A stretch of DNA of 64,000 nucleotides from Candidatus Altimarinota bacterium (GTDB lineage Bacteria; Patescibacteriota; Gracilibacteria; CAIRYL01; GCA-016699755), in assembly GCA_963664295.1 (NCBI GenBank), contig OY760935.1, positions 736,001 to 800,000 of the forward strand. The letters are read 5' to 3'. The notes beneath the pieces are model-generated. The model made no database searches and was not told where the DNA came from. It saw nothing but the letters and a program-made list of their open reading frames with translations. Of this stretch, positions 12,048 to 44,186 are shown piece by piece. A program made the translations under genes and the position numbers. Numbering within the stretch: the first letter of the stretch is position 1; every line of letters starts with the position of its first letter.

Positions 12048-12482
12048 TGGTGGAGATGGCGGGAATTGAACCCGCGTCCAAAGAGTAAAAATAAAAAACT
12101 TCTACAATCATAGTTTGTTTTTTGCTACCTCAATTGACCTAAAAAACAAACAAAACGAACCAAAAGAGGGCTTTTTGAGATACAAATAATTATTCAAAAA
12201 ACTAAACCATAATTATCCGTTCCGAGTAATCAACGCCTATTTGAAAAGCCCCGGAAAACAAATCAATAGACGCAGGCCGAAAATTAGTCAGCCTGAAGCC
12301 TCACACGCAATTAAGCGTAAGCTGGTTGTAAGCGAAAGCTTGCTTCCATTTTCTCAGCAAAGCGTGCAAGAGGACCTTTTTTTGCATTTAAGCAAGTTTA
12401 ATGTCTGGGTCACGGCGTGACACTAAAAACGCCGGATTGCAATTTTAAACTTTCATCTCATTGTCGAAAGCCTTACATCCCC
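12048..12482 (-). ncRNA. ssrA: tmRNA (435 nt); tag ORF 12385-12311 encodes AKKGPLARFAEKMEASFRLQPAYA*
   Basis: 5' GGGGATGTAAGGCTTTCGAC; 3' GACGCGGGTTCAATTCCCGCCATCTCCACCA; TAAAT-GCA resume context; tag ends in YA-stop. Confidence 0.96.
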
Positions 12483-20369: not shown

Positions 20370-21062
20370 TTTGGCGCATTGAAGATTTTTCGTGTGTATC
20401 CTAGGTCAAATAGATATTTAATTGAATAAATTAAAATCCAATAATTAAGGTATTTGTTTTTGTTTTCGCGCTCTTTTAATTTACCTTCAGGGGATTTTTC
20501 GTGTGTATCCTAGGTCAAATAGATATTTAATTAAGTAAATTAAGCACAAAAAAACACCCAGTAATTAAGGTGCTTTTTTGTTTTTGTTTTCGCGCTCTTT
20601 TGACGCCTTGAGGATTTTTTGTGTGTATCCTAGGTCAAAATAAGCTTGGACGACCAATCCACTCTTCTTGCCATCCTTTGGATAGTATTTTCGGTCTTCC
20701 CTGGACCTGCCCCATTGATGTTTTCGAGTCTAGGGCACATATGTCCCTGCTGAAAACGAGGCACTCAGAGCAAGCTCTGAGAAGATGAGCTCTTAAGGCT
20801 AGTCGTGCCAGAAAAGCTACATCGGAAAGCGAAGAAGACGGAACCTTTTCTTATGAAGCAAAAGAGTGTAAAGATGCTAAGAATAATGCTTTTTTTGTTT
20901 TGCTTTCTTGCTCTTTAGTCTTTTCTCTTCTCAAGAAAAGGCTCTTGTCTTTTTCACTTATGGTAAATCTTAAAATTTTCAAAGGTCGTTTTGTTTTTAT
21001 TTGTTTTTTTATTTTTTTGTGTGTATTTGTGTTCGTTTTTTTTGATTTCTGATTTTGTGTTT
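20370..21062 (-). ncRNA. Candidate large structured ncRNA (locus A); strand tentative
   Basis: No ORF of 60 aa or more; minus-strand TTGCCA-17-TAGAAT promoter (21097-21069); boxA-like CTTTGAAAATT (20984-20974); GC-enriched nested helices at 20650-20870. Confidence 0.55.
20384..20639. repeat. Three copies of a 27-nt core GATTTTT(C/T)GTGTGTATCCTAGGTCAAA, in units of 109 and 120 nt
   Basis: Cores at 20384-20410, 20493-20519 and 20613-20639; units 1 and 2 also share TAGATATTTAATT, AATTAAGGT and TTTGTTTTTGTTTTCGCGCTCTTTT. Confidence 0.92.
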
Positions 21063-21284
21063 CAGAACATTCTAATCAAAAAAGCCCAATCTGGCAACTA
21101 AAACCCCTTGCATGAACAATAAAAATATTATTTAAATATAATTTAATATCAAATAAATAGCTTAAATAAGCCATTTTAATTTTTTTGACTTTTACAAAAA
21201 ACATCATATATAATGATATGAATTATTTAGATACAATCAAATAAACACGTAAAATTACGTGCTTATTTTTTATAAACTCATCAT

Positions 21285-40874: not shown

Positions 40875-42671
40875 ATGATAATTCAGCCTTTCAAAAAACC
40901 AAGCTTTGCAAGCATAAAACTTCCCGGTTCAAAGTCTATAACTAACCGGGTTTATTTATATTCTGCATTAGCACAGGGAACAACAGAATTAAATAATGTT
41001 CTTGAAAGTGAAGACACAGAGATAATGCGCACTGCCTTAGAACAATTTGATATAAATATCGAAAATAATAAAGTTCACGGAAAAGGCGGAAAATTCACAA
41101 AAAAAGGTGACCTAGAAATATATTGTGGCAATGCTGGCACAGCTACCCGCTTTCTCATAGCAATAGCAGGATTAAGAAAAGGTACAACAATTTTTAAAGG
41201 CAAAGAAAGAATGCACTCAAGGCCAATAGAGCCACTATTGCAATCTTTAAGAGATTTAGGAGTAAAAGCAGAAAGCATTAACAATAATAATTGTCCACCA
41301 GTAAAAATCATTGGCACAGGCAAAATAAAAGGAGGTAAAACAAAAATGCGTGGAGACCTTTCCAGTCAATTTTTTTCTGCACTTCTAGCCCTTGCGCCAC
41401 TGTGTGAAAATCCAGTAGAAATTGAAATTGAAGAAAAACTAGTTTCCAAGCCATATCTTGAAATGACTATTGCTCTTTTAAAAAAATTTGGTATTCAAGT
41501 TGATTTCAGTGGACAATTTCTCAAAATAAAACCACAAAAATATATTTCACCAAAAAAATTTGAAATAGAAGGAGATGCCTCATCAGCAAGCCACTTGCTT
41601 AGTATAACCACAGCAGTAGGAGGTTATCTCGAGGTTTATCCATTGCCCGCAGATTCAGTTCAAGGTGATGCAAAATTCTGCACTGTCCTAGAAAAAATGG
41701 GTGCAAAATATGAACAAAAAGAAAATAAATTAATTTTAATTCGCAATCCCGAAAAATACTTAAAACCATTAGTAGAAATTAACCTTGAAAACATGCCTGA
41801 TGCAGCCATGAACGCAGTGGTATTATCCACATTAGCCAGTGGAGAATCGACAATTAAAGGCTTATCCACGCTTCGCCACAAAGAAACAGATAGAATAAGT
41901 GCATTAACAACAGAATTAAAAAAACTAGGAGCAATTGCGGAAAAAGGAGACGACTTTATAAGCATAAAAGGAGGAAAAGAACTAAACGGAGCAGAAATAG
42001 AAACCTACGACGACCATAGAATGGCAATGTGCTTTGCCGTATTAGGAGCAAAAATAAAAAATATAGATATAAAAGATCCAGATTGTGTTAAAAAAACTTT
42101 CCCCAATTTCTGGAAAGTTTTTGAAAAAATGAAACCCAAAAAAAACATAGTATTAAGCGGAATGCGCTGTTCAGGTAAGACAGAACTAGGAAAAAGACTA
42201 GCCAAAACTTGGGAATGGGATTTTTTTGACACGGACCAATATATAGAAGAAAAAGCAGGCAAAACAATTAACGAAATTGTTGCAGAAAATGGCTGGGATT
42301 ATTTCCGCGAACTCGAACACATTGCCTGTAAAAAAGCCAGTGAAATGAGCAATACAGTAATTGCTCTCGGCGGAGGCGCAATCACCTTTCCAAAAAACCA
42401 AGAATTACTAAAAAACTCCCTCAAAATATTCTTACAAATGCCATTAGAAATACTTTGTGATCGCATAGCAAAAACAAGCGATAGGCCATCATTAACCGGT
42501 CAATCACACATTGAAGAAATGGAAAAAATCTGGGACGAACGCAAAAAAATCTACTTAGAAACAGCAGATTTAGTAATAAAATTCAATAATAACGATATTG
42601 AAGACAATGCAAATAATCTATTGACAAAATTGGAAACTTTGTATAAGATAATATCCTTTGCCAAGAGCTAA
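40875..42671 (+). CDS. aroA: EPSP synthase fused to a C-terminal shikimate kinase (AroA-AroK)
   Basis: LPGSKSITNR, GNAGTATR, SSQF, RHKETDR, DDHRMAM; then GMRCSGKT, DTD, FRELE, GGG, RP. Confidence 0.95.
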   Translation: MIIQPFKKPSFASIKLPGSKSITNRVYLYSALAQGTTELNNVLESEDTEIMRTALEQFDINIENNKVHGKGGKFTKKGDLEIYCGNAGTATRFLIAIAGLRKGTTIFKGKERMHSRPIEPLLQSLRDLGVKAESINNNNCPPVKIIGTGKIKGGKTKMRGDLSSQFFSALLALAPLCENPVEIEIEEKLVSKPYLEMTIALLKKFGIQVDFSGQFLKIKPQKYISPKKFEIEGDASSASHLLSITTAVGGYLEVYPLPADSVQGDAKFCTVLEKMGAKYEQKENKLILIRNPEKYLKPLVEINLENMPDAAMNAVVLSTLASGESTIKGLSTLRHKETDRISALTTELKKLGAIAEKGDDFISIKGGKELNGAEIETYDDHRMAMCFAVLGAKIKNIDIKDPDCVKKTFPNFWKVFEKMKPKKNIVLSGMRCSGKTELGKRLAKTWEWDFFDTDQYIEEKAGKTINEIVAENGWDYFRELEHIACKKASEMSNTVIALGGGAITFPKNQELLKNSLKIFLQMPLEILCDRIAKTSDRPSLTGQSHIEEMEKIWDERKKIYLETADLVIKFNNNDIEDNANNLLTKLETLYKIISFAKS

Positions 42672-43150
42672 TAATGTAAGTCAGTTAAATCAAACATTTG
42701 TTTTGGCAAAGAATTGGGCAAGAGACGGGGAATTTTTCACCTGCTCACTCAACAAATCATTGGTGTAGCAGAGGTGTCCCCCCGTCTCAACGATACTCAT
42801 TACGATCATCAAAGGGACAAATCGAATGAGCTAGGTGCAAAATCGTCGACTCGGCGAAAATGCATCAGCTCCCTACCGTTCTTTGGCATATCTGTAAACC
42901 GGAATGCCAGCGGTATTTTTTGTTTTTATTTTTTTTGGACCTGCTATACGCAAGGTTAAAAACAATTTTTTTATTTTTGTTTTTTTTGTTCACCTCACAA
43001 GGAGGCTACTTTTTAATGGTGTCGGCCAGAGTCGAGTGGCCATCAAAAAGTAGGGAGGAAGAGAGCTTGAATATTTTTATGTTTCAATTAAGATTAATTT
43101 GGTTTCAAGCCCCAATTCCTAACTACCATTTCCGTCTCTGTCAAAGATCA
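42653..43150. ncRNA. Candidate large structured ncRNA (locus B) between convergent sigma70-type promoters
   Basis: About 9 consecutive hairpins plus long-range complementarities; + promoter at 42621-42649, - promoter at 43191-43163 followed by boxA-like GATCTTTGACA. Confidence 0.6.
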
Positions 43151-43242
43151 AGTTATCAGATAATTTTATCAAAAATTTTCTCATCAGTCAATCACTTCCT
43201 TTTTCTTAACGTTTCATACTATAATACTATAATTTAAAATAA

Positions 43243-43833
43243 ATGTCAAATCTAAAAGGTAAATTATTTTTACTCATCGGACCCTCTGGAGTAGGCAAAG
43301 GCACAATAATAAAAAACCTCAAAAAACAGCATAAAAACTGGGTATTTCCGGTTTCCGTCACAACTCGCAAAAAAAGACCCGGCGAAAAAGAAGGCAAAAC
43401 TTATTATTTTTACAGCAAAGAAAAATTCGAAAAACAAAAAAAAGAAGGAGCTTTCCTGGAGTGGGCATGTGTACATGGCAAAAATTATTATGGTCTCCTC
43501 AAAAAAACAGTTTTTGATGCACTAAAAAAAGGCAAAGTTGTCTTTCGTGAAATAGATATACAAGGATTTGAAAGCGTGCGCGAAATCGTACCAAAAGAAA
43601 ACTTAGTATCAATTTTTCTTTTACCGCCAAGCCTAGAATTGCTAGAAAAAAGAATTCGAGAAAGATCACCACTAACAGACGAAGAAGTAGCCAATAGATT
43701 AAAAAGCGCAAAAAAAGAAATATCCTTAGCAAAAGAGTGTACTTATCAGGTACAAACAGTGAACCTAGAAATCGAAAAAGGTGTAAAAGACATAGAAAAT
43801 ATTGTTTTTAGTGAACTTGCTGACAAAAGCTGA
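43243..43833 (+). CDS. gmk: Guanylate kinase
   Basis: GPSGVGKGT, SVTTRKKRPGEKEG, FLEWA, YYG. Confidence 0.96.
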   Translation: MSNLKGKLFLLIGPSGVGKGTIIKNLKKQHKNWVFPVSVTTRKKRPGEKEGKTYYFYSKEKFEKQKKEGAFLEWACVHGKNYYGLLKKTVFDALKKGKVVFREIDIQGFESVREIVPKENLVSIFLLPPSLELLEKRIRERSPLTDEEVANRLKSAKKEISLAKECTYQVQTVNLEIEKGVKDIENIVFSELADKS

Positions 43834-43989: not shown

Positions 43990-44125
43990 GGTAGGATCGA
44001 GAACCTGGTTCGACACTCAAGCGAGCGAGAGAATTTGCGCTTGTGCAAAATTCCGAGCAAGCGCAGAAGGCCTTGTTTTTGAGGAGCAAAGCTCCGAAAA
44101 AATGAGCATCCTACCCGGGCAGCCA
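43990..44125 (+). repeat. tRNA-linked structured element ending in an 18-bp copy of the tRNA-Gln 3' end
   Basis: ATCCTACCCGGGCAGCCA at 43924-43941 and 44108-44125. Confidence 0.8.
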
Positions 44126-44186
44126 GTTGCTTAGCGATAATTACAAAATTATCGTCTTTTTTGTCAAAAAACAGTAAATTATAAAT

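Follow-up and report, generated by a model that had tools for sequence, protein, structure and literature searches.

A probable family of large structured noncoding RNAs in Gracilibacteria, most often encoded divergently from gmk

Results

The element and its distribution

In a 64,000-nucleotide (nt) stretch of the genome of a Candidatus Altimarinota bacterium (assembly GCA_963664295.1, contig OY760935.1, positions 736,001 to 800,000 of the forward strand), the gap between an aroA-aroK fusion and gmk, which encodes guanylate kinase, is occupied by an element that very probably belongs to a real noncoding RNA (ncRNA) family. This whole stretch is referred to here as the window, and coordinates are those of the window unless they carry the prefix G000:C1, which denotes the complete genome (a single 1.215-Mb contig; completeness 100%). 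Its sequence suggests that the minus strand likely gives a stable RNA of ∼450 nt from a transcription unit of its own. A first-pass annotation had described the region as a densely structured stretch between convergent promoters, and both promoters (plus, TTGACA-17-TAAGAT; minus, TTGACT-17-TAAAAT) are present where it placed them, as is a boxA-like motif, which we located on the minus strand (Table 1). The three long-range complements reported there, along with a local competitor of one of them, are perfect reverse complements; among 500 dinucleotide shuffles, 3 reached three exact 8-nt complements with a spacing of 100 nt or more (mean 0.31), and 28 did so for 7-mers. Of its nine hairpins, most are visible, by inspection, in the minimum free energy folds of both strands. 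Moreover, both strands fold better than any of 100 shuffles, with folding z-scores of -4.39 (plus) and -4.64 (minus). Beyond that annotation, we found an H-type pseudoknot, a second minus-strand promoter, two paralogues, and an additional purine strand, lying upstream, that could take the place of the other partners of the pyrimidine strand S.

Related elements, ∼60 in number as judged from sequence, are found in Gracilibacteria and none were found outside the class. By blastn, the element was detected in 7/7 other genomes of its family and in 4/12 of the sister family; six further homologues came from a motif search. Two covariance models of a 60-nt core gave matches in 39 and 45 of 151 class genomes; after inspection of every match, the whole architecture was recognized in 43/151 of these sampled genomes (record titles Gracilibacteria and Peregrinibacteria), with the weak matches in G022, G038, and G136, the second matches within G012, G061, G072, and G118, and three purB-like coding matches (L042, L059, and L060) being discarded. 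Inspection by eye of the gmk side in 24 model-negative genomes gave nine more copies, of which seven are clear but diverged, one is reduced (G042), and one lies in a TGA-recoded genome (G060). In this recoded genome, a diverged, very A/U-rich copy persists upstream of gmk (L144). A pattern scan of 401 genomes yielded five more homologues, and an exact-pattern scan of 185,579 species genomes gave 10 matches, all titled within the Gracilibacteria group (the titles include Peregrinibacteria, Gracilibacteria, Peribacteria, and Altimarinota). Exact-pattern scans gave two matches in metagenome contigs and none in viral contigs, and blastn gave no match in phages and plasmids. Among 150 genomes of the phylum outside the class, there were four weak model matches and the architecture in none, and the element was seen in 0/25 gmk loci outside the class that were inspected by eye. 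Within the class, no copy was found in G008 (99% complete) or G019, and no copy was confirmed in families f10, f13, f20, f23, f24, and f30, although divergence could hide one in each.

The region upstream of gmk, where the first-pass annotation had proposed to gather homologues, proved productive, with gmk being the divergent neighbor in 43/55 homologues. Among the 48 homologues found by sequence, without recourse to synteny, gmk lies head-to-head in 36, downstream in one, and nowhere nearby in 11. The same-strand downstream gene, in turn, differs in kind and direction among homologues; a riboswitch or 5' leader was rejected because there is no consistent same-strand downstream gene. A replication-origin role was likewise rejected, since the GC-skew minimum is at ∼982 kb and the element is at 779 kb. 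Near that minimum, an A/T-rich sequence with a duplicated unit of ∼40 nt (G000:C1 984450-984850, minus strand) is the likely replication origin region. There is no conserved open reading frame (ORF) in the element; a conserved peptide was rejected, the longest closed Met ORF ranging from 3 to 135 amino acids (aa) among homologues with no frame in common.

Comparison with known RNA families

The comparison with Rfam proposed in the first-pass annotation matched no known family. Rfam 15 gave nothing at the gathering threshold on the element (best score 22.5 bits versus 56), only neighboring tRNAs passed on 20 diverse homologous loci, and the only matches in the whole window were RNase P RNA, transfer-messenger RNA (tmRNA), and two tRNAs. 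Covariance models of ROOL, GOLLD, OLE, and raiA gave no match up to E 10 on the element or on the 20 diverse loci. A literature search, which included term searches of two 2026 preprints, found no description of the element, although the preprint supplements may contain it as an unnamed cluster. The elements fit none of the known RNA families against which they were compared and are most aptly regarded as a new family of large, structured ncRNAs of bacteria.

Several specific assignments were rejected: (i) 6S RNA, as the element is not a ∼180-nt rod with a central bubble and has no RF00013 match; (ii) signal recognition particle (SRP) RNA, with no Rfam SRP match and with a genome search for Ffh/FtsY (SRP54) giving one weak match, below cut-off; (iii) Y RNA, as its Ro60 (TROVE) partner is not found in the genome; (iv) a template RNA of the retron, DRT, or telomerase-like kind, with no RVT_1 domain in its own genome and none among its neighbors; and (v) a group I or II intron, with no Rfam score and an intergenic position with its own promoter.

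The transcribed strand

We consider it highly probable, on the strength of the sequence signals, that the minus strand gives rise to the main RNA. A promoter-like site stands 5' of the minus-type strand in 47/55 homologues, and a boxA-like motif (at least 9/12 matches) follows in 34/47 homologues versus 20/136 control promoters, a count biased in favor of the motif, since the best-scoring of several promoters was taken for each homologue. The same boxA-like motif heads the tmRNA, RNase P RNA, a tRNA cluster, and the 16S gene in this genome. Downstream, a hairpin with a U-rich run is found in 44/44 cases on the minus-type strand versus 29/44 on the other strand by a loose test. Further, the P1 and P2a helices lean toward minus in a comparison of G-U with A-C pairs (29 versus 7 and 9 versus 1, respectively).

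Other observations do not favor the minus strand. The overall asymmetry of internal pairs is G-U 60 versus A-C 67 (an rRNA control of this strand test had too few counts), and the pseudoknot columns give 6 versus 12, with an imperfect alignment. One P2a position is A-C in 20/23 sequences and would be G-U on the plus strand. The region from S to D is also lower in energy on the plus-type strand in 40/46 homologues, which a U/G-rich composition can cause. Weighing these together, a minus-strand transcript is most likely, instead of the plus-strand hairpin series that the first-pass annotation had read as RNA. The T tract it placed after that series is present on the plus strand, where it is the complement of one of the A-rich linkers that would be single-stranded in the minus-strand RNA.

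The convergent promoter bears on the sense/antisense pair, an alternative also raised there. In an extended form of this alternative, the plus promoter would produce an antisense RNA or a long gmk leader, giving an excludon tied to gmk in which the two transcripts control each other. As a sequence feature, this promoter is real but confined to a lineage: it scores at least 10/12 in 13/52 scored homologues (8/8 of the family, 4/10 of the sister family, and G034), so that it occurs in 12/18 genomes of the order and is missing from nearly all homologues outside it, with G034 the one strong case. It is followed by a conserved CCUUU-type start, both strands fold, and gmk is divergent in 36 of the 48 homologues found without synteny; set against this, the 11 without gmk alongside and the promoter-like site that gmk has of its own (43206-43233) make such a pair quite unlikely as the function of the family. 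The antisense pair may well be a real add-on in the order.

Other boxA-like motifs stand directly after promoters upstream of 47079 (RNase P RNA) and 12482 (tmRNA), as well as near G000:C1 591949 (tRNA cluster) and 570370 (16S); these boxA-headed stable RNAs occur in a genome where Rho was not found. At G000:C1 265102, 170118, and 88970 (all minus strand), a strong promoter and boxA-like motif precede a structured leader and protein genes, and these genes stand apart from the remainder of the genome in their clear Shine-Dalgarno (SD) sites and elevated G+C. Promoters similar to those of the boxA leaders lie at G000:C1 269683 (plus) and 619076 (minus).

Architecture, covariation, and alternative pairings

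Read 5' to 3', the minus strand comprises a promoter, boxA, the U strand, P0, the S strand, P2 with a kissing loop, the L strand, P3, linker 1, P4, linker 2, P5 with the H-type pseudoknot, the D strand, P6 with the partner loop, P7, and P8 (Table 1). By rough estimate, homologues range from ∼310 to 625 nt in length, those of G055 and G025 being compact. The P8 motif is absent from many of them.

Table 1. Positions of the element, its parts, its neighbors, and the type II paralogues (window coordinates unless otherwise indicated)
Feature	Position	Strand	Remarks
aroA-aroK fusion	40875..42671	+	convergent neighbor in this genome only
Convergent sigma70-like promoter, within aroA-aroK end	42621..42649	+	10/12 matches; kept in 12/18 genomes of order
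Last hairpin	42655..42711	-	second possible RNA 3' end; first hairpin of any plus-strand transcript
P8 terminal stem	42721..42788	-	conserved internal CACCUCU (42776-42770) opposite GUG; U-rich run after it in most homologues
P7 domain	42793..42835	-	GCUC/GAGC-type helix enclosing variable stems; by eye
P6 hairpin	42836..42864	-	loop 42852-42846 is kissing partner of P2b
D strand	42869..42886	-	purine-rich, pairs with S from a distance and so closes P1 (9 bp, or ∼13 bp if one mismatch is allowed)
H-type pseudoknot	42884..42914	-	P5 stem 42914-42911/42901-42898; loop 42909-42904 with 42889-42884
Linker 2, A-rich, single-stranded	42915..42937	-	the plus-strand T tract of the first-pass annotation
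P4 hairpin, variable	42939..42956	-
Linker 1, A-rich, single-stranded	42966..42989	-
P3 hairpin	42992..43006	-	length variable
L strand	43006..43019	-	local partner of S 3' half (P2a); both-sided changes 3/6 pairs
P2b hairpin	43024..43041	-	loop 43035-43029 kisses P6 loop; both-sided changes: kiss 5/6 pairs, P2b 3/4
S strand	43040..43057	-	conserved, pyrimidine-rich; pairs with D (P1), L (P2), or U
P0 hairpin	43062..43113	-	variable 5' hairpin running into S
U strand	43116..43127	-	purine-rich leader and initial candidate partner of S; pronounced in many homologues and weak in the rest
boxA-like motif	43139..43150	-	at least 9/12 in 34/47 homologues
Promoter P2, proximal, sigma70-like	43163..43191	-	TG extension; 10/12 matches; predicted start ∼43156
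Promoter P1, upstream, sigma70-like	43221..43249	-	11/12 matches; overlaps gmk start region; tandem promoters in relatives too
gmk (guanylate kinase)	43243..43833	+	divergent neighbor in 43/55 homologues
Type II paralogue	∼20480..21090	-	same promoter-boxA-U-S-kiss-pseudoknot-D chain; A-rich tracts at both ends
Type II paralogue	G000:C1 1190880-1191410	+	boxA-headed
Type II paralogue	L282 ∼1170-1830	+

P1, P2, the kissing loop, and the H-type pseudoknot covary across the family, as judged from an alignment of 24 sequences picked from 46 for diversity and length. In this alignment, 83.4% of cells pair (36-52% in slid registers), and 21/35 pairs show both-sided changes versus a shuffle mean of 12.5, with 0/500 shuffles giving as many; by helix, such changes are found in 4/5 pairs of the pseudoknot and 2/9 of P1, in addition to those of the kiss. 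The structure counted for covariation had been drawn from the same sequences, which weighs against the result, and therefore a held-out check was made. Among five held-out homologues, found with a pattern that omits S and both loops, all have a P1 of 9-10 bp (two with a compensated pair) and a kiss of 5-8 bp that differs in sequence in each. The own pairing scores of 46 homologues exceed cross-family scores for the pseudoknot (14.0 versus 10.2), the kiss (16.0 versus 13.9), and P1 (20.6 versus 18.5). Two of the three long-range helices in the first-pass annotation hence hold up: the 42869/43050 helix is conserved, covaries, and is kept by 5/5 held-out homologues, and the pairing of TCGACTC (42846-52) with GAGTCGA (43029-35) is the conserved kiss. 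The third, the 42721/43132 helix proposed as a switch, does not, as only 7/37 homologues have an own 5'-3' pairing that ranks with the best 10% of cross-species pairings; a conserved 5'-3' closing stem was also rejected, since pairing of the RNA ends is not conserved across homologues.

The S strand is a single strand with three conserved, partly exclusive partners, namely U, L, and D. S:D pairing over ∼13 bp excludes S:L, and the extended S:D helix is present in nearly all 46 homologues. In some lineages, the 5' half of D can alternatively pair with the strand that follows P6. These alternatives fit a hand-over during transcription or a switch, as far as pairing potential indicates; against this, U:S pairing is barely above its cross-family controls (18.7 versus 16.8 in 46 homologues). 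Together, the missing Rfam match, conservation in most of the class, covarying kiss, and three-partner strand support the earlier proposal that the region encodes a large ncRNA of a new kind, with a pseudoknot and helices that can form alternatively.

Such strand exchange could also belong to a ribozyme or self-processing RNA, with S acting as an internal guide that pairs first with the 5' U and then with the 3' D. The nested long-range helix, two pseudoknots, and exchange resemble the P1/P10 exchange of group I introns, and invariant residues concentrate at the P1-pseudoknot junction. Few invariant residues are unpaired, however, there is no Rfam score against any ribozyme, and the P8 motif is missing from many homologues, which makes this explanation very unlikely.

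Type II paralogues

The two paralogues in this genome, designated type II, match each other (E 7e-8 and 4e-5), and that in the window has a folding z-score of -7.35 and no Rfam match at the gathering score. A third boxA-headed type II element is present in G011. In each paralogue, we could recognize by eye U, P0, an S-like strand, the kiss, a D complementary to S, and A-rich tracts at the ends, with the P5 loop pairing just before CCAAAG. A scan of the genome for S, CCAAAG, and the complement of S gave four sites, two of which have a promoter and an A-rich tract, namely the main RNA and the 1.19-Mb copy. Type II is judged by eye to be homologous to the main RNA, as its order of parts suggests; a MAFFT alignment with type I did not recover homology. 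Type II is sporadic, the type II pattern giving six matches in 5/201 genomes, three real and three by chance, with 12 in a backward control. Two decayed tandem copies of the 3' end of the window paralogue follow it (∼20370-20520).

A-rich linkers and their candidate ligands

The A-rich tract is the most constant sequence feature of the family, with at least one in 41/46 homologues and two in 24. In G072, G108, and G132, the inner tracts are lost and one is found at the 5' end instead, and reduced homologues retain an A-rich tract and lose helices. Its survival in reduced copies and its move to the 5' end argue for a binding site and against a template. The latter would be a telomerase-like RNA, whose P1-closed loop would carry a repeated A-rich template beside the pseudoknot, with a reverse transcriptase or another polymerase as the copying enzyme. 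The closing helix, single-stranded repeat, adjacent pseudoknot, and 3' stem are like those of ciliate telomerase RNA, but in the complete genome there is no RVT_1 match and the repeat forms no tandem array of more than 15 nt, and the tract lies outside P1 in some homologues; we regard a template as exceedingly unlikely.

The sequence of the linkers resembles the SD-free translation starts of the lineage. SD words are at or near the shuffled level in 7/7 genomes and precede 0.5-1.7% of 787 ORFs in this genome, where starts are G-poor and contain ∼50% A at positions -8 to -1. Of 748 starts, 2.3% have an 11-letter linker motif no more than 14 nt away, versus 0.2% of intergenic windows. There is no conserved start codon after the A-rich tracts (one follows 4/92 best linker windows). 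The 16S 3' tail of this genome is noncanonical, with a run of four C (G000:C1 ∼568650, minus strand), and that of G061 is canonical; a pairing of U or D with the tail of this genome was rejected, as no fit was seen by eye. In addition, a ∼35-nt intergenic repeat that ends in the A-rich motif has at least nine copies in the genome (G000:C1 469294, 515135, 579959, 658730, 690484, and 710555, plus strand; 310476, 303584, and 143120, minus strand).

From their sequence and persistence, we find it somewhat better than even that the A-rich tracts bind a protein. The genome encodes NusB and a bS1-like protein with three S1 domains; searches of it for Hfq, CsrA, Ro (TROVE), Rho, and RVT_1 found none. 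As the usual A-rich binders were not found, bS1 or the mRNA channel of the 30S subunit would be the simplest ligand. In SD-less lineages, bS1 has been postulated to replace SD pairing on A/U-rich RNA (PMC6847099).

The explanation we prefer, at a probability of roughly three in ten, is that the RNA may be a decoy that holds bS1 or 30S on A-rich strands that mimic the translation starts of the lineage. Five observations tell against it: (i) five homologues are A-rich-poor; (ii) A-rich, G-free RNA is also a generic way to remain unpaired; (iii) a 9-letter motif at starts reaches only about twice the level of a composition-matched shuffle in this genome (3.2% versus 1.7 ± 0.4%), and counts were too few for this comparison in six other genomes; (iv) the best linker windows are at the median 77th percentile of real starts, with 6/46 above the 90th; and (v) G045 has the same SD-free starts, and no copy of the RNA was found there.

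The kiss may instead serve a scaffold or oligomer made of RNA, comparable to ROOL, GOLLD, or OLE; kisses would then hold separate molecules together as dimers, rings, or a cage, and the A-rich linkers would either engage in A-minor contacts or project into the interior. Like these RNAs, as described in PMC12286853, the element is probably stand-alone, several hundred nt long, and rich in helices, with covarying kisses, pseudoknots, and long linkers. Its covarying kiss joins arms at opposite ends of P1, and several of its loops are palindromic. According to the same source, the kisses of ROOL and GOLLD, first seen by covariation, turned out to link separate molecules, and the cage encloses a variable linker. 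In contrast, the linker sequence is conserved here, unlike the ROOL linker in that account (PMC12286853), the palindrome is lost in several lineages where two-loop complementarity is retained, and reduced homologues have lost helices and still carry the A-rich tract. The element also differs in its topology, its conserved A-rich linkers, and its three-partner strand, as well as in being chromosomal and gmk-linked across one class with none found in viral contigs, phages, or plasmids. We regard a scaffold as only slightly less probable than the preferred decoy.

A decoy could also be directed at another protein, either sigma70-RNA polymerase (6S-like) or an A-rich-binding regulator (CsrB/CrcZ-like), with the U-to-D exchange releasing it. 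Sponge RNAs typically have a gene of their own, a single-stranded motif in several copies, and paralogues of sporadic occurrence, and the element shows signs of all three. CrcZ motifs are also A-rich, and 6S RNA was not detected in the genome; the element shares with 6S RNA a probable stand-alone, stable nature, a long-range helix, and a possible refolding switch. It is, however, more than twice the length of 6S RNA, branched rather than a rod, and without a central bubble, has two pseudoknots, and gives no 6S model score at the main locus or the 20 diverse loci. Compared with CrcZ and CsrB/RsmZ, it is far richer in tertiary structure, the Hfq and CsrA that would be bound are not found in the genome, and the CrcZ model score on the element is at chance level (10.2 bits versus a cut-off of 95). 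We therefore hold such a target to be unlikely.

Other features of the window and genome

The aroA-aroK fusion forms one ORF of 598 aa. At 44047-44126, the 3' end of tRNA-Gln is partly duplicated with a hairpin between, which is probably an insertion scar. The tmRNA gene (12048-12482) has a long tag of 24 aa with the end QPAYA. The 16S (G000:C1 570160-568650, minus strand) and 23S (near 1137289, plus strand) genes appear unlinked, a protein-coding region following 16S.

Discussion

For the preferred decoy of bS1 or 30S, the following sequence of events can be envisaged. NusB-S10 would load on boxA and chaperone the folding of the RNA, a role in folding being suggested because NusB is encoded in the genome, whereas no Rho was found there whose action antitermination would counter. 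S would pair first with the leader strand U, next with L, and finally with D, as each emerges. The kiss and pseudoknot would then lock the mature fold, leaving one or two A-rich tracts open in the P1-closed loop, where they may bind bS1/30S without a start codon, so that initiation capacity is stored or titrated. Paralogues with other promoters could tune this storage.

Two boxA-headed or ribosome-facing systems offer partial parallels. As in rRNA leaders, boxA stands right after a sigma70 promoter, and boxA-bound Nus factors have been described as chaperones of local and long-range folding (PMC8632103); the difference is that no rRNA follows the element and a 5'-3' processing stem is not conserved. 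Like tmRNA, whose gene is boxA-headed here, it has a pseudoknot beside a single-stranded mRNA-like region and a proposed ribosome-facing role, but it lacks a tRNA-like domain, a CCA end, and a conserved frame, and the true tmRNA gene lies elsewhere in the window. Taken to its full extent, the picture would be of an ancient housekeeping RNA of Gracilibacteria, transcribed with boxA/Nus, folded by strand exchange into a pseudoknotted, possibly ring-forming particle, that would present imitations of the SD-free starts without a start codon and so store bS1/30S in these host-dependent cells as an RNA-based form of ribosome hibernation, with paralogues tuning it; as a whole, we regard this as speculative and rather improbable.

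Bacteria have few large structured RNAs, of which those known so far either serve central functions (tmRNA, RNase P, SRP, and 6S) or are puzzles (OLE, ROOL, and GOLLD). The RNA described here is conserved in both location and fold in most of a class of bacteria with reduced genomes, and its retention under such reduction suggests a core job. With a length of ∼300-600 nt and ∼60 natural variants, it is a ready target for probing and cryo-EM. Moreover, it is an example of how boxA can stand at the head of several stable RNAs where no Rho was found in the genome, and it offers a connection, open to testing, with the way in which translation is initiated or paused in SD-free Patescibacteria.

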